DNA of 36,610 nucleotides, from the IMG/VR virus record IMGVR_UViG_2541047898_000006; one strand, 5' to 3'. Made by a program: the position numbers and the translations under genes. The notes under the pieces were generated by a model that was not told the origin of the DNA, ran no database searches, and was given only the letters and a program-made list of their open reading frames with translations. This stretch comes from a virus (lineage: Duplodnaviria > Heunggongvirae > Uroviricota > Caudoviricetes). Positions 1 through 36,323 of the stretch are shown piece by piece; position 1 is the first letter of the stretch, and each line of letters begins with the position of its first letter.

Positions 1-1053
1 TTACGGGGTAATGCCAACCGCTGCCGCCACTTTGTCGCCACTTGGCAGCGTTGCCAGAGGATTGAAACGGAGCGCCGTTTCCAGATGATCCGGTGCCAGA
101 TGTGCGTAACGCATAGTCATTTTTATATCGTGGTGTCCGAGAATTTTTTGTAAGGCCAGAATGTTTCCACCCGACATCATGAAGTGCGCCGCAAACGTAT
201 GGCGCAGAACGTGTGTGAGTTGACCGCGAGGGAGTACGATAGACGTTTTTTCCATCACGGATAAAAATTGAAAATAGCAGTCTGTGAAGAAATTGAACCC
301 ATCAAGCGCCATGATCTCTTCGTAAAGCTCTTTACTGATAGGGATGCTTCTGTTTTTCTTCCCCTTCGTTCTGACAAAGGTAATTCGGTATTTGGTCACC
401 TGTGAGCGGGTAAGATTTACGGCTTCACGCCAGCGTGCGCCTGTGCTTAAGCATATCTTAACTACCAGTGCCAGAATTGGGTCCTGACGTTTGCAATCAG
501 CCAGCAATTCAACAATCTGCTCATGGGTAAGCCATGCCATCTCTTTTTCTGCGATGGTGAATTTTCGCATGTTCTCCAGTGGGTTCGGATACGACCATTC
601 GCCCAGACGGGATAGTTCGCTAAAAACACTACTTAGATAGCTTTGCTCCAGGTTAATGGTGACCGGGCTTGCTCCTTTCTTCCATTTCTCGCTGAAGTAG
701 ATCTCGCCTGTCAGGCGTTTATCTCGATAGTGGGCAAACATTTTAGAGGTGAGATCGGTTGCAAGAGGATTGCCCAGAGCGTCAACCATCAACAGCAATT
801 TGTCATAGACATGCTGCCCAGCTGTCAGAGATTTACCATGTAGTTTGAACCATAGCTCAACCACGTCTTTCAGTGTTCGACGATCCACTGATTCACCCAG
901 CCAGGGCTTTGCTTCGGTTTCTTCCATCGTGTGGCGCTCAAAAGCCAGTGCTTCGCCTTTGGTGACGAATTGTTTACGCACACGACGCCCACTTCGTCCG
1001 GCGGGGTAACATTCGCAAAGCCATTTCCCAGTGGTGAGTTTTCGTACTGCCAT
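1..1053 (-). CDS. int: Tyrosine integrase (P2/186-like site-specific recombinase)
   Basis: Minus-strand ORF ending with TAA at 1..3. C-terminal region has the HxxR box (VLRHTFAAH) and catalytic Tyr motif (MRYAHL). Likely start is the internal Met (MAVRKLTTGKWLCE..., GGAGGG SD about 8 nt upstream), giving 350 aa; the ORF-track start at 1209 lacks an SD. Position at the prophage end next to the att core matches P2. Confidence 0.88.
   Translation of the reverse strand: MAVRKLTTGKWLCECYPAGRSGRRVRKQFVTKGEALAFERHTMEETEAKPWLGESVDRRTLKDVVELWFKLHGKSLTAGQHVYDKLLLMVDALGNPLATDLTSKMFAHYRDKRLTGEIYFSEKWKKGASPVTINLEQSYLSSVFSELSRLGEWSYPNPLENMRKFTIAEKEMAWLTHEQIVELLADCKRQDPILALVVKICLSTGARWREAVNLTRSQVTKYRITFVRTKGKKNRSIPISKELYEEIMALDGFNFFTDCYFQFLSVMEKTSIVLPRGQLTHVLRHTFAAHFMMSGGNILALQKILGHHDIKMTMRYAHLAPDHLETALRFNPLATLPSGDKVAAAVGITP
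21..40. repeat. Putative attL core (ctgccgccactttgtcgcca), direct repeat of 33758..33777
   Basis: 19/20 nt identical to 33758..33777, with no similarity on either side. One copy lies inside the int 3' end, the other 3 nt past the ogr stop, which are the positions expected for attL and attR of a P2-like prophage. Confidence 0.55.
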
Positions 1054-1241
1054 AAAAAATGCCCTCCAGTAGAGAGCATTTTCACTGTATGTATAACCAG
1101 TGTCAATGTATGAAATCCTACGACCATACATCTCACTGAAGCCATAATTAAGTTGGCTATTCTTTTTGCTATGTGAGCATGTAACTTTTGCGGTTAACCT
1201 GCGGCTCATTTTTATTTTAGACGCAGATATAAAAGCAAAAG

Positions 1242-1433
1242 TTATCGTGAGTTTTTAGTACAGATTTTTTTGGATTTACTAATAGTTCCATCATTGCAAA
1301 CGAATTTGCCATCTGAGGTACAGTGAGAAACACCTCCCTTTTTCCCTGAGCAGGGATAATTTCTAGCATAGGTAGTTAGTGGGTTTAATAACAAAGAACA
1401 TGACAAAACCACAAAAAATACCTTACCAAGCAT
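1242..1433 (-). CDS. Small secreted Cys-containing peptide (hypothetical cargo gene between cI and int)
   Basis: 63-aa ORF with a strong SD (GGGAGG, 5-nt spacer) immediately after the cI stop. N-terminal signal-peptide-like segment ([23 protein letters not shown]) followed by a Lys-rich roughly 40-aa part with four Cys. AT-rich relative to flanking genes. Confidence 0.5.
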
Positions 1434-1448
1434 AGTTTCCTCCCGGTA

Positions 1449-2105
1449 CTATTTAACATACTTGACTGTTAAACTTATAATTTTACCAATTATTTCAATG
1501 TCTTCTATCTTGCATTCGAAGGCTCTGTTTCCACCCTCGACGAAGATTCTTCCACCGGGTAAACGAGTAATGTCACGGATCGTTATTTCGCCATCAATAC
1601 TTATTACCCATTTACCATCACGTATATCATCAAATTCTTTATCACAAATAAATTCAGAATTGTTATCTGTGATGACAAAAGGTTTTTTAAACGTAGAGGG
1701 TAGAAATCCCTTATCAAAAATATAAAAACCGTCTTTCTGCAATGCTCCATCAGACAATAAATATTTTTCTACTTCTATAGTATTTGTATTTGCTGATGCT
1801 TGCTTTGAACCATGCCCTGTTGTTAGCCAATTAAGCGAGGTGCCCGTTTCAAGGGCGCACTGGATTACCCAATCTGCTGGAAAAATATCACGCATATAGC
1901 GCGTTGCCATGGTGCTCTTAGAAACACCTAAATGATCACATAGAGCCTGACGGGTACCGAACCCATATGCTTCAACTAAACGTTCTATGGCTTTCTTACC
2001 GCCGCTATTGAAATCCACAAGTCCTCCAAAGAAATCCAAAATTCGTTGACAGATTCCAAAAGCGATCTTAAAGTTGAACCAGAAGTGTTCTTTTGGAGCC
2101 TTCAC
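1449..2105 (-). CDS. cI: CI-type immunity repressor (186-like)
   Basis: 218-aa ORF transcribed divergently from the cox/apl-like gene and co-oriented with int. Its N-terminal segment (ERLVEAYGFGTRQALCDHLGVSKSTMATRY...ALETGTSLNWLTTG) fits a phage CI-repressor-type helix-turn-helix domain. The exact start is uncertain. Confidence 0.8.
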   Translation of the reverse strand: MKAPKEHFWFNFKIAFGICQRILDFFGGLVDFNSGGKKAIERLVEAYGFGTRQALCDHLGVSKSTMATRYMRDIFPADWVIQCALETGTSLNWLTTGHGSKQASANTNTIEVEKYLLSDGALQKDGFYIFDKGFLPSTFKKPFVITDNNSEFICDKEFDDIRDGKWVISIDGEITIRDITRLPGGRIFVEGGNRAFECKIEDIEIIGKIISLTVKYVK

Positions 2106-2163
2106 TACTAATCACGACAAACAACGGCTCGCCACAAGCCATATCTAGAAGGAATGTTGCCTT

Positions 2164-2367
2164 ATGACACCTAACATTTCAATTACTCTGAATACACCAC
2201 ATGTCACAATCGAACGTTATAGCGAACTGACTGGCCTTTCTATTGATACGATTAACGACATGTTGGCTGATGGCCGACTACCTCGTCATCGTCTTCGTAA
2301 AGACAAAAAACGTGAAAAGGTAATGATTAACATGGCTGCTCTGACTGTTGATGCTTTGTCTGCTTAA
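2164..2367 (+). CDS. Cox/Apl-like excisionase-family DNA-binding protein (lytic side of the immunity switch)
   Basis: 67-aa ORF divergent from cI, the first gene of the early operon. HTH-like segment [24 protein letters not shown] resembles Xis/AlpA-type winged helix proteins. Confidence 0.6.
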
Positions 2368-2422: not shown

Positions 2423-2941
2423 TTGAAAACCATGTTTGATTACCAAGTTTCCAAACATCCACATTTTGATGAAGCCTGTCGTGCATTCACACTGCGCCAC
2501 AATCTGGTGCAACTGGCAGAACGTGCGGGCATGAATGTGCAGATTCTGCGGAACAAGCTGAACCCAGCTCAACCTCATTTATTAACCGCACCAGAAATCT
2601 GGCTGCTTACCGATCTGACTGAAGATTCAACGTTGGTAGATGGTTTTCTGGCACAGATTCATTGTCTGCCATGTGTACCGATTAATGAGGTAGCAAAAGA
2701 GAAACTGCCGCATTACGTCATGAGCGCAACTGCAGAGATCGGGCGTGTTGCAGCAGGTGCGGTATCTGGTGATGTAAAAACTAGTGCCGGTCGTCGTGAT
2801 GCTATCAGCAGCATTAACTCTGTAACACGACTGATGGCGCTGGCTGCTGTTTCATTGCAGGCCCGTTTACAGGCTAATCCTGCGATGGCGAGTGCAGTTG
2901 ATACCGTGACTGGCCTCGGTGCTTCATTCGGTTTGCTGTGA
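2423..2941 (+). CDS. CII-like phage regulatory protein
   Basis: 172-aa ORF at the position of 186 cII / P2 B in the early operon. Assignment is mainly by synteny and size. Confidence 0.6.
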
Positions 2942-7820: not shown

Positions 7821-7993
7821 ATGGATCTTCCCAGTAGTTTTTCGAAACTGAAAACAACCGAGTGAAAGTTACGACACTTGAGATTTTCACTTGGGTTATA
7901 ATCAGAATACTTGTTTTCGTCCACAAATGTACATGCCATGCATTAATGTGGTGATAGCTTTCAATTTTTACTAAATGGTTTCAATTGCTTCTT

Positions 7994-8539
7994 ATGAATC
8001 ATGTAATGTTAGATATAGAAACATTGGATGTTGAAAAAACAGCTTATATCCTTTCAGTTGGTGCGGCTTTTTTCGTGCCGGAGACTGGCGAGATTGGTCC
8101 GGGTTTCTATCAAGTTATTTCGCTTGATCATGAACAAGCAGGCAGAACCATTGCCCCCTCTACTGTAAAGTGGTGGATGAATCAAAGTACTGAAGCTAAA
8201 AACGAAAATTTTGATGGCACTAAGGACCTTTTAGAGGTTCTGAATGAATTTGTGGCATTTATTCATCATAATCGTACTGGCCGAGTAAAAGTGTGGGGAA
8301 ACGGGAAAGAGTTTGACTGCACGATCATGCATCATGCCCTGTTACAGGCGGGTCTGGATTGCCCATGGTCATTCAGAGATACTCTTGACGTTAGAACCAT
8401 CTTAGCACTTGGTGAAAGCAAAGGAATTTTTTCTCATGCTGATAAAAATTTCACTGGCATTAGGCACACAGCATTCGATGATGTTTTATTTCAGATCGCA
8501 CAGGTTTCTCACATCTATATGAATTTAAATAAAAAATAA
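7994..8539 (+). CDS. DEDDh-type 3'-5' exonuclease (DnaQ-like)
   Basis: N-terminal DIETLD (Exo I motif) and C-terminal HTAFDD (H-x4-D) motifs. AT-rich. Start ambiguous (TTG 7985, ATG 7994 or ATG 8006). Confidence 0.7.
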   Translation: MNHVMLDIETLDVEKTAYILSVGAAFFVPETGEIGPGFYQVISLDHEQAGRTIAPSTVKWWMNQSTEAKNENFDGTKDLLEVLNEFVAFIHHNRTGRVKVWGNGKEFDCTIMHHALLQAGLDCPWSFRDTLDVRTILALGESKGIFSHADKNFTGIRHTAFDDVLFQIAQVSHIYMNLNKK

Positions 8540-8554
8540 ATATAGGACTTAGCT

Positions 8555-9466
8555 ATGGATTGCTTAGATGTAACCTATTGGACTGAGCTAGATGTTTTCG
8601 CACAGTATCCTGTTGGTGCTCGCTCTAAGGCATTGGTTATTTCCCCTGATGTTGCCCCCCATGGTATCAAAGCATCGTGGCCGTATCTTTTTAAGAGAAG
8701 TATTAAAAAATACCCAGATCAATTTTGGTGTGAGATCGTTGCCTACAGGATTGGATTGCAGCTTGGTTTTAATGTCCCCAAAGCAGTTCCTTCGTTAAAG
8801 ACTAATGATTTGGGGCATACGTTTTGCGGGGCCCTCATTGAGTGGTTTCATCATAAAGATTATGAGAAATTTGCTCCCGCTGGTGATTACTTTGTTCGAA
8901 GAGATCCAAATTTTGATCGTGAGAAAGGAGCTAAGCATTCCATTGAAGGGCTGAGGATTATCGCGAAAGCTCTTAAAGTTGACTATGTTGAGTGGTTGGA
9001 GAATATGGCTCTCTTTGACGCAGTAATAGGTAATACAGATAGACATCAAGAAAACTGGGGGTTTATCTTCTCACCTTTAACCAGCGAGTGTCAGCTTGCA
9101 CCATTTTTCGATAATGGTACGAGCTTATGCTACGAACGTTTTCCGGAACATGTTGCTGATTGGACCGATCATAGACTCAGGGAGCATGTTAGCCGGGGAA
9201 AGCATCATTTGCGTAAGACTCTGGGCAAAGATGAGTATCAGAGATTAGGTCATTTAGAGTTAATCAAAGAACTTTGTGATAAAAAAGAAGAATTAAAACA
9301 GCGGGTAGCTGAAAGACTGGCTCGTTTGAACCATGACTTTTGGGACTCAACTTTTGCGGAGTTGACGGAAATAAACTGCCCTGTTCCGCTGACTAGAGAA
9401 CGTGCTGCATGGATTGTTCGTGTAACAAACATGCGTATTGAACTGATTAAAGGTGTTACTTCATGA
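8555..9466 (+). CDS. HipA-like Ser/Thr kinase core (HipT-like, lacks the HipA N-terminal subdomain)
   Basis: Aligns by eye to E. coli HipA motifs: ATP-binding loop PVGARSKAL (HipA VAGAQEKTA), EIVAYRIGLQLGFNVPKA (HipA LLLAKELGLNVPDA), catalytic loop IGNTDRHQENWGF (HipA IGATDGHAKNFS), Mg-binding LAPFFDNG (HipA LTPFYDII). AGGA SD; 15 nt after the exonuclease stop. Confidence 0.7.
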   Translation: MDCLDVTYWTELDVFAQYPVGARSKALVISPDVAPHGIKASWPYLFKRSIKKYPDQFWCEIVAYRIGLQLGFNVPKAVPSLKTNDLGHTFCGALIEWFHHKDYEKFAPAGDYFVRRDPNFDREKGAKHSIEGLRIIAKALKVDYVEWLENMALFDAVIGNTDRHQENWGFIFSPLTSECQLAPFFDNGTSLCYERFPEHVADWTDHRLREHVSRGKHHLRKTLGKDEYQRLGHLELIKELCDKKEELKQRVAERLARLNHDFWDSTFAELTEINCPVPLTRERAAWIVRVTNMRIELIKGVTS

Positions 9467-10167
9467 CTATCTTAATAGAAAAAATTCCCATGCCAAGTAG
9501 GCTCTTACTGACATGGCAACCGACCGACGGCGGCTCTCGCTATGTCGTTGGTGAACTTCTTCAAGATGAGTCTGAAGGCTACGAGTTTAATTATCTTACG
9601 GATAGCAAAGATTTTGCTAAAGCTGTGGATAAAGGCTTTCACGGTTTTCCTGCTTTTGACATAAAAGTTACGACTCATCGCAAAGACGTTATGCAAACCT
9701 TTTCAAGAAGGTTACCCTCTAGGAAAAGAGAAGATTTTGCCGATTACTTGCTGACGTTTCGTCTTCCTGCTGATTTTAGAGAGAATGACTTCGTTTTGCT
9801 CGCTTGTACTGGCGGAAAAGTGGCTAGTGATGGTTTTTATTTTGTCCCAGACTTGTCTTCTATTCGGCCACCTTTTGATTATGTCATGGAGGTCGCCGGA
9901 ACGAGACACATGATTAAGGAAGGGCGTCTAGCTCTTGACGAGATATCAATTGGTGATGAAGTCATATTGCGCAATGAAGATACCAATACTGTTGATCCGC
10001 TGGCCATATTAGTAACGAAAAACGACAATCATCTAGGATATGTCAACAAGGCATTGTGCGCCGCATTACGAGATCTTGGTAAAAACCATGATATCAGTGG
10101 AGTGGTCGTACGTAAAAATGGCTCTTCGGATAGGCCTTTGATTTATGCAAAAGTATCTGTTAGATGA
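9463..10167 (+). CDS. Two-domain protein: HipA N-terminal-like (HipS-like) domain fused to a C-terminal HIRAN domain
   Basis: Start overlaps the kinase stop (ATGA). N-terminus LLLTWQPTDGGSRYVVGELLQDESEGYEFNY and FSRRLPSRKRED parallel the HipA N-terminus (LVTWMNNQRVGELTKLANGAHTFKY; FDNLLPDSPIVRDR). C-terminus GDEVILRNEDTNTVDPLAILV...LGYVNKALCAALRDLG...GVVV matches the HIRAN pattern (E-V-L-R-x-P-x-N-x-x-D-x-N-A-I-x-V ... G-[YH]-[VL]-x-K-x-L-A-x-x-L). Confidence 0.55.
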   Translation: MTILIEKIPMPSRLLLTWQPTDGGSRYVVGELLQDESEGYEFNYLTDSKDFAKAVDKGFHGFPAFDIKVTTHRKDVMQTFSRRLPSRKREDFADYLLTFRLPADFRENDFVLLACTGGKVASDGFYFVPDLSSIRPPFDYVMEVAGTRHMIKEGRLALDEISIGDEVILRNEDTNTVDPLAILVTKNDNHLGYVNKALCAALRDLGKNHDISGVVVRKNGSSDRPLIYAKVSVR

Positions 10168-10653: not shown

Positions 10654-11199
10654 ATGGATGCTATTACTGGATTATTGGATTTTTTTAGAAAGATTCCAAC
10701 GGCACTTCTTGTAGCTATTACATGTGGTTTAAGTTTGATCCTTTTTTTGCCAGAATCTTTAGCTTCTAAAGTTGCGGTTGATGGTTTCCGTAAAGAATAT
10801 AGAAATTTCATAGGACCAGCATTTTTACTGGCTGTCTCTTTTTTAGTTGCAAGAGTATATCAGTTTTTTCATGACCTATATGGCGATAGACAAAGGCACA
10901 AAGTACGTATCTCTTATTTGGAGAAGCTAACTCCTGAGGAGAAGGGATACCTCTGGTCTTATATAATTGATGGCGAAAACTCACTAATGTGTGGTCCTGA
11001 AGATGGTGTTATGGGGGGGTTGGTTGCTAAGCGCATAACCTATAGAGCTGCAAACGTGGGCAGTATGATTGACGGATTCGCTTTCAATTTGCAGCCGTGG
11101 GCTCGCGAGCATTTACAGAACAACACTCATTTATTAGAAGGAGCGGTCGGTAGGGCAATGACACCGGGTGAGAAACTAGGATTCAGGCGTAGATTTTAA
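10654..11199 (+). CDS. Membrane protein (two N-terminal TM helices plus cytoplasmic domain); possible superinfection-exclusion-type cargo
   Basis: 181-aa ORF with GAGGTG SD. Hydrophobic segments TALLVAITCGLSLILFL and GPAFLLAVSFLVARVY. Sits between the putative cos and the portal stop, where P2 has only about 100 bp. Confidence 0.55.
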   Translation: MDAITGLLDFFRKIPTALLVAITCGLSLILFLPESLASKVAVDGFRKEYRNFIGPAFLLAVSFLVARVYQFFHDLYGDRQRHKVRISYLEKLTPEEKGYLWSYIIDGENSLMCGPEDGVMGGLVAKRITYRAANVGSMIDGFAFNLQPWAREHLQNNTHLLEGAVGRAMTPGEKLGFRRRF

Positions 11200-19998: not shown

Positions 19999-20694
19999 TC
20001 ATGTCAAATATTGATAACTTTTATCAATTTCAAGTTTGTGAAATTTGGTTATCTTTGAATCAATGTATAAATCTATGAACATTGCTATCCCTATCATAAA
20101 TATAAATAGAATGCTTAAATAAATAATGGGGGTGGCAATCATAATTGTAAATTTGTTCTTGTCTGTCGTTTTTGCTAACTCTTCTTTCTTTTCAGGAATT
20201 AGCAAGTAGCTACAAATGAAATCTTTTGTGGCTTGTTGGATTGAAGTGATCTTATCAAGCTGTGACTTGTCAACACATACATCTGGTGTGATATTCCATT
20301 CAGGTGTGTATGGTATGTTTTGTGCGTGTTCTGGTTTCATCCAAAAGGAATCTTTTGTTTCTCTATGTGTGATTTCAATCCAATTTACGGGTTCTTTGGC
20401 GATGAAATAGGTAAATTTATAAAAACAAAGTGCTGAGGTCATAATGACTGCAATTCCAAATGAGACGATAAATATTTTATGTTTTTTAATATGGGGTTTT
20501 GTGCTTAACTTATATTTGCAAAGACTAAGTCTAATAATTGGCTTTGATATTCCAATCTTTGATATCAAAAAGTCTTCTTCTGGATAGGATGTGTTTAACC
20601 ATGACCAAAAAGCCGAGATGCCACCTATAAGCCATTTAAATATAAGACCACCAATGGCCGTAGCTAAAAATGTATTTATTTTATCAATTTCCAT
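19999..20694 (-). CDS. AT-rich membrane protein of unknown function (cargo in the S-V slot)
   Basis: 231-aa minus-strand ORF inside the otherwise plus-strand late region. GGGGA SD 5 nt upstream. Three hydrophobic helices, at the N-terminus, near residue 80 and near the C-terminus. Visibly lower GC than neighbours. Confidence 0.65.
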   Translation of the reverse strand: MEIDKINTFLATAIGGLIFKWLIGGISAFWSWLNTSYPEEDFLISKIGISKPIIRLSLCKYKLSTKPHIKKHKIFIVSFGIAVIMTSALCFYKFTYFIAKEPVNWIEITHRETKDSFWMKPEHAQNIPYTPEWNITPDVCVDKSQLDKITSIQQATKDFICSYLLIPEKKEELAKTTDKNKFTIMIATPIIYLSILFIFMIGIAMFIDLYIDSKITKFHKLEIDKSYQYLT

Positions 20695-25242: not shown

Positions 25243-25369
25243 CTGAGAATTAAATGGTTAGTATCATCCTCCCCCACACTGCCTATATGGTATGAATACG
25301 AGGGGGAGGCTGTTTGTTGTCTGTTTCTGTGATAATATTAGATTCTCGTTTTTTAATAAAAAAATCAAT

Positions 25370-26380
25370 ATGAAAGAGAATAAAATACGTTCTGCCGATG
25401 GCGTGAGAGGTTTCGCTTTGATGATTGTTGTGGTGATGCATGCTACGGGACTATTCTTTCCCTCACTTCATGATCATCTCGGAGGTACGGGGCAGCCCGG
25501 TGTTTGGTTGTTTTTTGTTCTTAGCGCCTTTTTGTTGACACATAAATTTATTAATTCTGGTTTTTCGTTTTTGAATGTGTTGAGTTATCTTTTAGGGCGA
25601 ACAATAAGGATATTACCGATTTTTTATATTGCAGTATTAATTTATTACCTTATGGGATTTTATGATTTAGAGAAAATGAAATCGATAATTTCATTTGATA
25701 GTACTTACATCCATCTCTGGACTATTCCGATAGAATTCAAGTTTTACTTTTTGTTGCCGATTGTGGTTTATCTCGCATCTAGTATCCAGAAAGTTGCAGG
25801 TAGAAAATATTCTTTGTTATTTTTGATATTGTTAACCTTAGCGTTCGCTTTTATATACCCTTATACGGATGACGAAATCAACGGTAGGCTACCGTATTAC
25901 ATTCCTGTTTTTATGTATGGAATTATAATTGCGTTTATGTATAACTATTTTCAAATTAAAATATCATCTCTCGTTAGTGATGGGGTGTCAATTGCGATTA
26001 TATTAATATTTATAATGTTGACCCCTCCTTTTCAGGGGGCTAATGGTTGGTTGGGTAATAAATTTGTGGTATTAGGGCCATTTATTGCTCTCTTTGTATA
26101 TCTGCAAGTAAATTCCAGTGGGTATGTAAGCGCGGTTTTATCTTCAAAAATCATGGCGGATTTGGGGAAATATAGTTTTTCAATTTATTTGTTTCATATA
26201 ATGATAATTTTTATTGTTTATCCTAAATTTTTGGATAATGTTACTGCATACTTAGTTACTATAGCTTTATGTATTGGCGGTGGGGCTATTGCCTATCATT
26301 GCATTGAATCTCCCTTGGAATCGTTCAGACATAAGCTTATGAAAAGAATAACGCAGGCTTATCAGAATCAAAATATTTAA
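25370..26380 (+). CDS. Acyltransferase-3 family integral membrane protein (probable O-antigen/LPS O-acetyltransferase, lysogenic conversion cargo)
   Basis: Start at internal ATG 25370 (MKENKIRSADGVRGFALMIVVVMHA: R-x10-H motif of the acyltransferase-3 family). Roughly 10 hydrophobic helices. Strongly AT-rich. Sits in the G-FI slot where P2 carries Z/fun. Confidence 0.8.
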   Translation: MKENKIRSADGVRGFALMIVVVMHATGLFFPSLHDHLGGTGQPGVWLFFVLSAFLLTHKFINSGFSFLNVLSYLLGRTIRILPIFYIAVLIYYLMGFYDLEKMKSIISFDSTYIHLWTIPIEFKFYFLLPIVVYLASSIQKVAGRKYSLLFLILLTLAFAFIYPYTDDEINGRLPYYIPVFMYGIIIAFMYNYFQIKISSLVSDGVSIAIILIFIMLTPPFQGANGWLGNKFVVLGPFIALFVYLQVNSSGYVSAVLSSKIMADLGKYSFSIYLFHIMIIFIVYPKFLDNVTAYLVTIALCIGGGAIAYHCIESPLESFRHKLMKRITQAYQNQNI

Positions 26381-33777: not shown

Positions 33778-33841
33778 TCATTAAAAAATAGTGCTTCTAA
33801 CATCATGATTTTAAAAGGCATAAATTTCAGGCAACAAAAAA

Positions 33842-33878
33842 CCCATCAACCTTGAACCGAAATGGCGGGGTTGATGGG
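33842..33878 (-). terminator. Rho-independent terminator (minus strand), probably for host ybjL
   Basis: Perfect 10-bp inverted repeat CCCATCAACC / GGTTGATGGG with a 17-nt loop, followed on the minus strand by TTTTTT (plus-strand AAAAAA at 33836..33841). Confidence 0.5.
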
Positions 33879-33990
33879 CTCCACAAAATGGGGACATCAA
33901 AGAAAAGCAGTGGCACTAATTAAGACTGATGCCCTGCGGAAAAGTTCTGCGGTTGTGCAAAAAAATTTCATTTTCAGGGCAACTTCAGTT

Positions 33991-35676
33991 TTATCCTAAT
34001 CCTGGCCATACCATGACGATGATTGTCCCTGCCAGCGTCAGCAGGACGTTGGCGATTGCATAGGTGCCCGCATAGCCCAGCGCCGGGATGTTACTGCGAG
34101 CTGTATCACTGATGATCTCCATTGCCGGCGCGCAGGTACGTGCGCCCATCATTGCGCCGAACAACAGCGCGCGGTTCATTCGCAATACATAAGCACCGAA
34201 CAAGAAACAGATAACCACGGGCACCAGACTGACAATCAATCCGGCAATCAACATCTGACCGCCAATCGCGCCCAGGCCGTTATTAATACCGCTACCGGCG
34301 CTCAGACCAACGCCTGCCATAAACACCATCAAGCCGAACTCTTTCACCATGCTTAATGCACCCTGCGGAATGTAACCGAAGGTCGGGTGGTTAGCACGCA
34401 TAAAGCCCAGCATAATTCCGGCGAATAACAACCCGGCAGCGTTCCCCATGCCGAAACTGAATGTGCTGAACTGGAAGGTGATCATCCCGATCATCAGCCC
34501 AATAACAAAGAAGGCGCAGAATGCCAGCAGGTCAGTGACCTGGCTGTGAATCGAGATAAAGCCGATGCGATCGGCGATGGTTTTTACGCGGCGGGCATCG
34601 CCGCTGACTTGTAAAACGTCACCTTTGTTAAGCACGACGTTGTCATCTATCGGCATCTCAATCTGGCTACGAATGACGCGGTTAAGGAAGCAACCGTGAT
34701 CGGTCAACTTCAGTTGTGCGAGACGTTTACCTACAGCGTTATGGTTTTTAACGACCACTTCTTCAGTGACGATACGCATGTCGAGAAGGTCACGATCGAA
34801 AACTTCTTTACCGTTACGGAAGCTGGGATCGAGTCGGGCATGGGCGTCGGGATAGCCTACCAACGCTATTTCATCGCCCATTTGTAGCACGGCATCACCG
34901 TCTGGATTTGCCAGAATCCCGTTACGTCGAATACGTTCAATGTAGCAGCCGGTTTGTCGATAAATACCCAGTTCACGCAGATTTTTGCCGTCGGTCCAGG
35001 CCACCAGTTCCGGGCCGACGCGATAGGCGCGGATCACCGGTAAATAAACCTTACGGTTGGCATCAGTGTCCAGGCCACGTTCGCGGGCGATTTGCTGGGC
35101 GCTGGTCTGTAAGTCCTGATGCTGCAATTTCGGCAAGTAACGCGCACCAACAATCAAACTCACCAGACCGATTAAATAGGTTAAGGCATACCCGAGGCTC
35201 AGATTATCCAGTGCCAGTGAGAGCTGCCTGCTTTCCATGCCGGAATGACGCAGTGTATCGCCAGCACCGACCAGAACCGGTGTCGACGTCATAGAGCCTG
35301 CTAACATACCGGCCGTCAGGCCAATATCCCAGCCAAACAGCTTACCTAACCCTAAGGCGATCACCAGCGCACTGCCAACCATCACCAGTGCTAACATTAG
35401 GTAATTTTTCCCATCGCGAAAAAAAATGGAAAAAAAGTTCGGTCCGGCTTCGACCCCGACGCAGAAAATAAACAGCATAAAGCCAAGATTAAGCGCATCG
35501 GTGTTAATGCTGAAATGTTGTTGGCCTAATAACAGCGATACGACTAAAACGCCAATGGAATTACCCAGTTGGATCGAACCAAGTCGTAACTTTCCGAGAC
35601 ATAGCCCAAGCGCGAGGACCACAAATAATAACAGAATGTAATTCCCATTTAACAATTCGGCGACGTTTATATTCAC
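33991..35676 (-). CDS. ybjL: Putative transport protein YbjL (host)
   Basis: 561 aa with hydrophobic N- and C-terminal transporter halves and a central soluble region; N-terminus [28 protein letters not shown]; size and neighbourhood match E. coli ybjL. Confidence 0.85.
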
Positions 35677-35945
35677 GGAGGCTAACTTCTTGTTTACTAG
35701 TAAGCTGTTGAAAGAAATGGTAATTTACGATAATGTTTTTTACCAGAATTCAGGGCGCAGATTCATTCAGCGCACCTAAACGATAGTAAAGTAACAATAT
35801 ATTTTACTAGTGTAATCACATTAGGTATCAACGGCTATATGAATTGCGTTGGCCTATATTAGCATGGAATGCGAAGCGGCTTTATCTTACTGAACGCCAC
35901 ACTGGCGAAAAATGTGTTCGATAGACGCAGTGTCAGGAGGAACGA

Positions 35946-36323
35946 GTGAAACATAAACAACGTTGGGCGGGGGCAATCTGCTGTTTTGTCCTCTTCATTG
36001 TGGTGTGCCTTTTTCTGGCGACGCACATGAAAGGCGCTTTTCGGGCTGCCGGGCATCCTGAAATCGGCTTGCTATTTTTCATTCTTCCTGGAGCAGTCGC
36101 CAGCTTCTTTTCACAGCGTAGAGAAGTCCTGAAACCTCTGTTTGGCGCAATGCTGGCGGCACCCTGTTCGATGCTCATTATGCGGCTGTTTTTTTCACCG
36201 ACGCGCTCATTCTGGCAAGAGCTGGCATGGTTACTAAGCGCGGTGTTCTGGTGTGCGCTGGGGGCACTGTGTTTCTTATTTATCAGTAGTTTGTTTAAAC
36301 CACAGCACAGAAAAAATCAGTAA
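35946..36323 (+). CDS. ybjM: Inner membrane protein YbjM (host)
   Basis: 125-aa polytopic membrane protein with GTG start and AGGAGG SD; lies between ybjL and grxA as in E. coli. Confidence 0.8.
   Translation: MKHKQRWAGAICCFVLFIVVCLFLATHMKGAFRAAGHPEIGLLFFILPGAVASFFSQRREVLKPLFGAMLAAPCSMLIMRLFFSPTRSFWQELAWLLSAVFWCALGALCFLFISSLFKPQHRKNQ

Follow-up and report, generated by a model that had tools for sequence, protein, structure and literature searches.

Why does a temperate phage carry a very small gene between its immunity repressor gene cI and its integrase gene int, two genes that lie next to each other in well-studied relatives? In phage 186 the stop codon of cI overlaps the start of int, and in phage P2 the 115 bp from C to int contain no gene, whereas the DNA analysed here has an open reading frame (ORF) of 63 codons at this position. 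This DNA, which we refer to as the window, is a stretch of 36,610 nucleotides from a virus of the Caudoviricetes (IMG/VR record IMGVR_UViG_2541047898_000006). A preliminary description, made from the letters alone, had pointed out the ORF with its strong GGGAGG Shine-Dalgarno (SD) sequence between cI and int, had noted that P2 and 186 have no such gene in this slot, and had suggested that the product is a secreted or periplasmic factor for lysogenic conversion or exclusion. The position and the SD sequence are borne out by our own reading of the sequence, and the position also by the PGAP annotation of identical DNA, which lists int, a YdcA family protein and CI and agrees on the start of the ORF, and the absence from P2 and 186 holds in the comparison with both phages. 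The earlier range of 1210..1448 takes in 32 nt of 3' spacer beyond the ORF; the coordinates used here are collected in Table 1.

Table 1. Features of the lysogeny region of the window (strand or orientation as given; a point marks features without strand).
Feature	Coordinates	Strand	Basis or remark
P2-like tyrosine integrase, 350 aa, last gene of the lysogeny operon	1..1053	-	Pfam Int_N + Phage_integrase; PGAP
AT-rich island	1051..1800	.	GC 0.34-0.37 vs 0.44-0.53 in the flanks; covers the ORF and the 3' two-thirds of cI
Spacer between ORF and int, 188 nt, highly structured as RNA	1054..1241	-	MFE -55.9 kcal/mol
YdcA-family gene, 63 codons + stop	1242..1433	-	ORF listing; identical to RefSeq WP_000900883.1
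Predicted mature peptide, 40 aa	1245..1364	-	basic, four conserved Cys
Predicted Sec signal peptide, residues 1-23, cut after Ala23	1365..1433	-	heuristics + family alignment
Shine-Dalgarno GGGAGG	1439..1444	-	5 nt ahead of the ATG; direct sequence reading
cI stop TAG	1449..1451	-	15 nt upstream of the ORF ATG
186-type immunity repressor cI	1449..2018	-	Pfam Phage_CI_repr (PF07022) 3.3e-31 + Phage_CI_C (PF16452) 4.7e-29; PGAP coordinates
Switch region, cI to apl/cox-like gene	2019..2163	.	face-to-face pR + pL expected by 186 analogy
Cox/Apl-like gene	2164..2367	divergent from cI	PHROG 575
CII/CP76 gene	2432..2941	divergent from cI	Pfam / PHROG searches

By its gene order, the cI region of the window is laid out like the lysis-lysogeny switch of coliphage 186. 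The start of cI was set by PGAP to a GTG at 2018, giving a protein of 189 aa, and the open frame as such reaches 2105. The window opens at the stop codon of the integrase, for which a frame of 402 aa (1..1209) can be read, but this extends the gene too far upstream, and the PGAP protein from identical DNA has 350 aa. In the mRNA, the sequence that leads from cI into the ORF reads TAG(cI stop)-TACC-GGGAGG-AAACT-ATG. When the minus strand was scanned for consensus signals, neither a promoter-like nor a terminator-like site turned up in the gap after cI or directly past the ORF. As the ORF thus is the second cistron of an operon cI - ydcA-like - int, with its own SD sequence and without a promoter- or terminator-like site after cI, the 63-aa protein should be made whenever cI is made. 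The switch region contains a plus-strand TTGACA-17-TAAAGT site at 2046..2074, and no pL-like promoter was detected by the consensus scan, which is why pL is inferred here. In phage 186, the pL transcript covers cI and int and ends at a distal terminator, and by this precedent the ORF would be constitutively expressed from pL in the lysogen, and also from the establishment promoter after infection.

Downstream of the ORF, this transcript would enter a spacer that folds far better than its shuffled versions (z = -5.25 for 1054..1241). The last hairpin of this spacer (1055..1083) pairs the SD sequence of int (1062..1067) and finishes in a U-run at the int ATG. The scan for consensus terminators had no call on the minus strand, and Rfam gave only a sub-threshold chance match for spacer and operon. 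The structured spacer, with the int SD paired in its last hairpin, may hold the expression of int low.

Is the ORF a real gene, and is it a new one? The 63-aa protein scores 115.8 bits with the NCBIfam model NF007463 (PRK10040.1-2), for which the curated cut-off is 93 bits, it matches PHROG 6000 (unknown function) with E = 1.9e-34, and Pfam PF27300 is precomputed for the 90% cluster that holds it. The gene is not new, because RefSeq has already assigned the sequence to a family and calls the identical protein “YdcA family protein”. Identical copies are found on >1000 contigs under the names “hypothetical protein”, “YdcA family protein” and, in UniRef, “Conjugal transfer protein”, of which the last is not supported by any profile search. 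The local copy of Pfam contained no model for the ORF, and its sole match (0.075) is a chance match. With the equivalog model of the chromosomal YdcA of E. coli K-12 (NF007462, cut-off 118 bits), the window protein reaches 68.5 bits and thus stays below the cut-off, while K-12 YdcA itself reaches 147.3 bits. By these profile scores, the window protein is a paralogous YdcA subtype (NF007463) and not a ydcA orthologue. Both the family and the chromosomal paralogue had been missed in the preliminary description, which had named a homology search as a check.

The selection data rule out that the ORF arose by chance and has no function. The module of cI and ORF occurs in 709 of 5426 complete E. coli genomes (~13%), in 625 of them with at least 80% coverage. 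Among 82 near-identical loci there are nine alleles with 17 variant sites, of which 15 are synonymous, and the two nonsynonymous variants are T20A, which falls into the signal peptide, and R24K, a conservative change, so that residues 25-63 are free of any replacement. Two or fewer nonsynonymous changes out of 17 would be expected under neutrality with a probability of 1.9e-8, and the two most diverged alleles differ by a dS of 0.31 and a dN of 0.007 (dN/dS 0.022). Profile searches recovered 444 clusters at 50% identity among 1.84 billion representatives, and a word-indexed search recovered 1607 clusters at 90% identity; the members come from Gamma-, Beta- and Alphaproteobacteria and reside on chromosomes, prophages and plasmids. 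A lack of conservation in related prophages would have spoken against the earlier reading, but the gene is kept, is under purifying selection, and recurs behind repressors, as described below.

In megablast searches, only int and the adjoining 78 bp (1..1131) match phage genomes, at 96-97.5% identity, with 97% nucleotide identity to Escherichia phage vB_EcoM-813R9 and Klebsiella phage 4LV2017, and a mosaic breakpoint is thus located near 1131. On the basis of these matches, the segment with cI and the ORF is a module distinct from the int segment. The phages that share the integrase have other genes in the slot between cI and int: in Klebsiella phage 4LV2017 it holds a hypothetical protein of 350 aa, and in vB_EcoM-813R9 a protein of 558 aa that matches the PADLOC defence model PD-Lambda-1 with 400 bits. 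The interval between integrase and primase of P2-like prophages has been described as a minor defence hotspot that contains 8% of the P2 systems (PMC13586616). The ORF therefore behaves as expected for a cargo gene, being located between conserved genes, absent in 186 and P2, and replaced in phages with the same integrase. It forms part of the cI operon and does not have the own promoter and terminator of an autonomous moron. The AT-rich variable slot, together with the absence from 186 and P2, gives the ORF the status of a passenger gene, and as far as sequence comparison can tell, it is a genuine passenger gene of a 186/P2-like E. coli prophage that belongs to the catalogued, uncharacterised YdcA family.

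The protein itself has sequence features that suggest a small exported protein. Its signal peptide has a positively charged MLGK start, a hydrophobic core (KD(10) = 2.73) and a polar end NPLTTYA that obeys the -3/-1 rule with the pair T..A, and these heuristics place the cleavage site at T-Y-A|R. The Ala at position -1 (Ala23) is kept in at least 90% of the family, whereas the region preceding it is variable, and homologues have classical A-x-A sites in the same alignment column. The n-, h- and c-regions and this family-conserved Ala thus support the earlier suggestion of a cleavable signal peptide. The pre-protein would be exported by the Sec system and cut after Ala23, which would give a 40-aa peptide with a pI of 9.70 and a mass of 4.3 kDa that contains seven Lys and two Arg. 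Of the five Cys, C12 belongs to the signal peptide, and C28, C38, C46 and C58 are found in the mature part. The Lys-rich mature peptide with four Cys had already been recognised in the preliminary description, and it now turns out that these Cys are conserved in the family.

In an alignment of 38 diverse mature domains, the invariant columns are P, C, S, K, G, G, C, F, C, G, S, S and C. They can be summarised in the motif P-C-S-G-x-K-G-G-x-x-x-C ... F-x-C-x-D-G-x-x-S-x-S-K-x-x-C, and the window protein has all of them. In the periplasm, the four invariant Cys are probably paired in two disulfides. In the AlphaFold2 model, which was calculated with an alignment of 47 sequences, the signal peptide is helical and a small beta hairpin is formed, and the pLDDT is 83-91 for residues 31-60. 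Expression in the lysogen together with cI, Sec export, cleavage after Ala23 and the two disulfides are well-supported predictions, and we regard the part of the scheme that covers the cistron, its expression and its export as highly probable.

Two other readings of the exported product can be judged at this point. As the residues 8-12 (VVLSC) match a relaxed PROSITE-like lipobox, the protein could be regarded as a lipoprotein with Cys12 as the lipobox cysteine. However, the strict lipobox L-[AS]-[GA]-C is absent, Cys12 is preceded by just 11 residues and is missing from most homologues, and homologues have A-x-A sites for signal peptidase I that align with Ala23. With the strict lipobox missing and a non-conserved Cys that is too near to the N-terminus, this reading is rejected as extremely improbable. 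The peptide could also be a secreted, cationic, Cys-stabilised antimicrobial or bacteriocin-like agent against competitors, since a basic peptide of 40 aa with four Cys is superficially defensin-like, and the family is found on mobile elements that include plasmids of 4-5 kb. This is very unlikely, as neither an immunity gene nor an export gene is adjacent, a Sec signal leads to the periplasm only, E. coli has a paralogue as a stable gene on its chromosome, and no bacteriocin family was matched. A soluble peptide that stays in the periplasm of the lysogen is thus the reading with which we continue.

In which genetic contexts do phages keep such genes? The Haemophilus phages HP2 and S2 contain an unannotated homologue of 60 aa, which we found by tblastn (NC_003315, complement of 2487..2669). 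It is located between cI and orf1(S)-int, inside the annotated pL operon, and translational coupling of this homologue to cI is suggested because its ATG overlaps the cI stop codon (…AAA ATG TAATG…). As in the window, a YdcA-family gene is thus positioned directly behind a cI of the 186/HP1 type in a P2-like phage and upstream of int, with the difference that in HP2 and S2 a further gene for a secreted protein, orf1(S), separates the homologue from int.

To what extent this arrangement is general can be seen from two sets of loci. Among 80 loci from species-representative genomes, 19 have a repressor-like gene upstream, and at about three quarters none was found. A 186-type cI lies upstream on the same strand at six of the 80, immediately so at five and at a distance of ~0.4 kb in Buttiauxella. 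Two of these six represent the phage of the window and three are Yersinia prophages; the Yersinia and Buttiauxella prophages have the same gene order with cI proteins that are only ~30-36% identical, and an int that is 48% identical in case of the Yersinia ones. At 12 further loci, an HTH_3 repressor, often with a Peptidase_S24 domain, is encoded upstream on the same strand. These belong to P2-like prophages of beta- and gammaproteobacteria (Comamonas, Iodobacter, Oceanisphaera, Kingella, Hydrogenophaga, Moraxellaceae and others), a gene for a lipoprotein or a secreted protein often intervenes between the repressor gene and the YdcA-family gene, and at several loci the P2 genes for gpD, gpU and the tape-measure protein follow downstream on the opposite strand. 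In a second set of 80 viral contigs, which were picked for diversity, half (40) show the family gene preceded on the same strand by a repressor-like gene, 16 of the 186/HP type and 24 of the HTH_3 type; for the 186/HP type, the gaps are 18-84 nt, with one of 422 nt. A Pfam search of the 120 distinct upstream ORFs of this viral set gave 18 matches to Phage_CI_repr, 15 to Phage_CI_C and 14 to HTH_3. In phages, YdcA-family genes thus are preferentially positioned behind an immunity repressor, in a slot that can also hold a validated defence gene. When the neighbours of all 80 loci were clustered, a conserved operon partner was not found, as there were only lineage-restricted neighbours and none of these beside the window gene.

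The family occurs in other contexts as well. A second phage context is the position after the tape-measure gene of siphovirus-type tails (11 ORFs), and in Moraxella Mcat phages and Acinetobacter phages the family gene is found among the genes of the late region. There are 58 plasmid records, including mobilisable plasmids of 4.1 kb and 5.4 kb. On chromosomes the synteny is stable, with the order cybB-ydcA-trg in Escherichia and ydcA-like-DUF2946-PepSY in Citrobacter and Atlantibacter.

In the searchable literature, we found nothing on a linkage of the family to phage repressor operons, nor on the unannotated copy in HP2 and S2. This repressor linkage and the HP2/S2 copy are what is new here, and the gene as such had already been catalogued.

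What could the predicted periplasmic peptide do for the lysogen? The context suggests that, as the last step of the scheme, the mini-domain would serve the lysogen by binding a conserved target in the periplasm, which would be anionic or part of the envelope. An exclusion of superinfecting phages or of foreign DNA is our best guess for its purpose, which is drawn from the context and must be seen as tentative. For the whole explanation, from the second cistron to a beneficial periplasmic binding event, we consider the chances of being right or wrong to be balanced. With respect to known systems, the 63-aa protein matched none of the PADLOC defence models, and it had no match above threshold to known exclusion families (Pfam, SieB etc.).

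Another reading follows from the chromosomal paralogue of the protein. K-12 YdcA (b1419; NF007462 / PRK10040) is 57% identical to the window protein over the whole length, the mature parts are closely similar, and the architecture is alike, with a signal peptide that is followed by ~35 aa with the pattern PCSG.KGG.SHC...KFVCNDG.IS.SKK.C. The K-12 gene differs in being a chromosomal gene between cybB and trg that has its own equivalog, whereas the window gene is repressor-coupled prophage cargo. K-12 YdcA has been described as a protein of 57 aa with a signal sequence, predicted to be periplasmic and of unknown function (PMC11340327). A deletion of ydcA sensitises E. coli W to 300 mM 3-hydroxypropionate, and ydcA is cited as being acid-induced under YdcI (PMC7642389). 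The literature on YdcA in combination with DsbA, on the “YdcA family” and on WP_000900883 contained no functional information. The Bacillus “ydcA” of the literature is a different gene that encodes a rhomboid protease, and the “ydcA” on plasmid pS88 and on a gonococcal island are probably unrelated ORFs of the same name.

These reports could mean that the prophage gene brings about lysogenic conversion, in that an additional, repressor-coupled YdcA activity would aid the tolerance of acid, organic acids or envelope stress without being directed against phages. The 3-hydroxypropionate sensitivity and the acid induction are the sole reported phenotypes of K-12/W ydcA, and none of them concerns phages; the similarity of the mature parts of prophage and K-12 proteins and the many chromosomal members with stable synteny fit to such a role as well. 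On the other hand, the host already has its own ydcA, NCBIfam sets the prophage subtype NF007463 apart from the chromosomal NF007462, and the bias to the post-repressor position, like the presence of a defence gene at this place in a sibling phage, agrees better with a conflict between phages. Taken together, we hold a contribution to stress tolerance to be rather unlikely, and exclusion remains our tentative choice for the purpose of the peptide.

The consequences of either role are easily named. As the module of cI and ORF is present in about one in eight complete E. coli genomes, the system is a common one, and the post-repressor placement makes a lysogen-specific periplasmic role, be it exclusion or envelope conversion, cheaply testable. 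If such a role is true, it would provide a function for E. coli ydcA as well as for PHROG 6000 / PF27300, and a very small secreted protein would join the protection factors that are encoded by prophages. If no role is found, the gene will remain an ordinary uncharacterised passenger.

Further clues to the mode of action may come from larger proteins that contain the module. Family forms of ~105 aa add a PBCV basic-adaptor module (PF08789), and rare long forms have a signal peptide and a YdcA module that are followed by an SNase domain (cluster P0126) or by Endonuclease_NS (clusters P0176, P0196, P0202). In other rare fusions the partner is of the PLD type (P0200) or is a T6SS VasL domain (P0118), so that three secreted nuclease folds (SNase, Endonuclease_NS, PLD) that are unrelated to each other are represented, and there is one triple tandem; the fusion clusters have 1-3 members each and are mostly metagenomic. 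Together with the basic peptide with its invariant Lys and with a resemblance to the Legionella protein Dis2, which is discussed below, these fusions are weak clues to a basic, disulfide-locked periplasmic binding module, which could recognise anionic polymers such as DNA, LPS or lipid head groups, or else an envelope site. One may carry this further and speculate that YdcA mini-proteins are widespread, so far unrecognised periplasmic exclusion factors of temperate phages and plasmids that are coupled to repressors, in which the basic, disulfide-locked domain of 35-40 aa binds incoming nucleic acid or its entry site in the envelope, and which have been recruited as targeting modules by secreted nucleases and by T4SS/T6SS components. 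We consider this generalisation to be a doubtful one.

Among proteins of known structure, Dis2 (Lpg0823; 7MUC/7MUD) comes closest. It is the top PDB match by Foldseek (7muc_AN, E 0.36, 38-44% identity), and in hmmsearch it is the only PDB match with E < 0.001 (3.3e-4), with the shared motif CS-K-GG-I-x-x-C ... VCN[DN]G..S. With a profile of the mature part only, the E-value for Dis2 is 0.11 and thus no better than that of an LDL-receptor repeat that matched by chance. As the significance is lost without the signal peptide, homology to Dis2 is not claimed, and the match is kept only as a lead. C-type lysozyme and LDL-receptor repeats were also matched weakly in the PDB (E 0.05-0.65), which we attribute to chance similarity among Cys-rich proteins. 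In the Dot/Icm cap, Dis2 is a two-lobed protein that is pinned by disulfides and positioned near the outer membrane (PMC8486379).

This lead raises the alternative that the peptide is an adaptor or docking module near the inner face of the outer membrane, which modulates a secretion, conjugation or injection apparatus, be it of the host or an incoming one, or which tethers partners there. That Dis2 is the best PDB match by both Foldseek and hmmsearch, that Dis2 has the build and the location just described, that one member is fused to a T6SS VasL domain, and that a weakly conserved membrane protein is encoded next to the family gene on two small plasmids and in one prophage would all be in line with an adaptor function, but the match does not hold with the mature-only profile (E = 0.11), and the window ORF is without a partner gene. 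An adaptor function is therefore improbable. In comparison to the window peptide, Dis2 is alike in being a small, disulfide-pinned module that bears a signal peptide and has a similar Cys/Gly motif, and it differs by its two lobes, its five disulfides and its role as a stoichiometric T4SS component. For the tentatively preferred exclusion role, the comparison has to be made with proteins and genes of other phages.

Sim of phage P1 and Spackle of phage T4 are small signal-peptide proteins of resident phages that act in the periplasm against incoming phages, and their likeness to the window peptide is a functional analogy only, no relationship in sequence or fold having been found. With respect to the genetic arrangement, the window gene is best compared with old, tin, fun(Z) and PD-Lambda-1, which P2-like phages carry as morons or for defence, and which likewise are variable genes in a fixed slot and presumably are expressed in the lysogen. 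The window gene showed no homology to any known defence protein in PADLOC, and its product differs in kind, as it is not a cytoplasmic enzyme, but a predicted exported peptide of 40 aa.

The 188-nt spacer that separates the ydcA-like gene, i.e. the ORF for the 63-aa YdcA-family protein, from int is strongly structured, with a minimum free energy of -55.9 kcal/mol and a z-score of -5.25 when its folding is compared with that of shuffles. Its final hairpin (window 1055..1083) holds the int Shine-Dalgarno (1062..1067) in a base-paired state and is closed by a U-run at the int ATG. With cI and the ydcA-like gene ahead of it, this hairpin may attenuate transcription or mask the translation of int, and it belongs to a segment that the sibling phages of Klebsiella and E. 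coli share at 97%. At the 3' end of cI, a promoter-like site points rightward, antisense to cI; it could be an antisense promoter or a coincidental match in AT-rich sequence.

At its right end (33833..36323) the window consists of host DNA that includes rybB, and in complete genomes rcdA adjoins int. The prophage is located between rcdA and rybB, and its attachment site is probably the 3' end of rybB or a position close to it. This E. coli prophage segment with the ORF and int is also contained in a 3057-bp contig (JAEWTL010000113.1) that was binned as a "Bacillota bacterium" MAG, with an ORF 100% identical and an int 99% identical to those of the window; the assignment most likely results from mis-binning or contamination.

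YdcA-family genes are also found on the plasmids pGFJ6 and pA40P1, both very small and with only five or six genes; pA40P1 has MobA/MobL, yet is typed as non-mobilisable. On both plasmids, the adjoining gene encodes a weakly conserved membrane protein, and in a Comamonas prophage the YdcA-family gene lies beside this same membrane protein. In several metagenomic or genomic proteins (P0126, P0176, P0196, P0202, P0200, P0118), the YdcA module, a small four-Cys domain predicted to be exported, follows a signal peptide and is fused to further domains. The partners comprise three unrelated nuclease folds, namely SNase, Endonuclease_NS and PLD-like, as well as a T6SS VasL domain, and forms of about 105 aa carry an extra PBCV basic-adaptor module.

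Features of the prophage, its flanking host DNA and compared loci
Feature	Position	Strand	Remarks
Structured spacer, 188 nt	window 1054..1241	-	upstream of int; RNA folding vs shuffles
Sigma-70 promoter-like site	window 1453..1481	+	near-consensus, TTAACA-17-TATAAT, 11/12 matches
Rv2179c-like 3'-5' exoribonuclease gene	window 7985..8539	+	gpA-gpQ hotspot
HipA_C-like kinase gene	window 8555..9466	+	gpA-gpQ hotspot; PADLOC match
HIRAN-domain protein gene	window 9463..10167	+	gpA-gpQ hotspot; PADLOC match
SieB-family superinfection-exclusion homologue	window 10654..11199	+	PF14163, 2.2e-22
DUF6216 gene	window 19999..20694	-	opposite strand, among presumed late genes
Acyl_transf_3 acyltransferase gene	window 25292..26380	+	downstream of presumed tail-fibre genes
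RybB sRNA	window 33833..33911		105 bits
ybjL-type Asp-Al_Ex transporter gene	window 33991..35676		host DNA
YbjM gene	window 35946..36323		host DNA
PD-Lambda-1 match (vB_EcoM-813R9)	L005 1791..3467 = ON470620.1 27790..29466		E = 3e-120
YdcA-family gene, plasmid pGFJ6	L169 640..816		4.1 kb, mobilisable
YdcA-family gene, plasmid pA40P1	L170 2267..2440		5.4 kb

The acyltransferase, which possibly modifies surface polysaccharide, and the DUF6216 gene are further cargo of the prophage; by position, we take the genes upstream of the former to be tail-fibre genes and those around the latter to be late genes. The gpA-gpQ hotspot (window 7985..10167, plus strand) holds three neighbouring genes in the order exoribonuclease, kinase and HIRAN protein, the latter two of which match the PADLOC candidate defence system PDC-M03A/B (123 and 125 bits). 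The SieB homologue directly precedes the portal gene, and at least one recognisable exclusion gene is therefore already present elsewhere in the prophage. In the sibling Escherichia phage vB_EcoM-813R9, the cI-int slot is occupied by a gene annotated as "chromosome segregation ATPase" that matches the model of the PD-Lambda-1 defence system.
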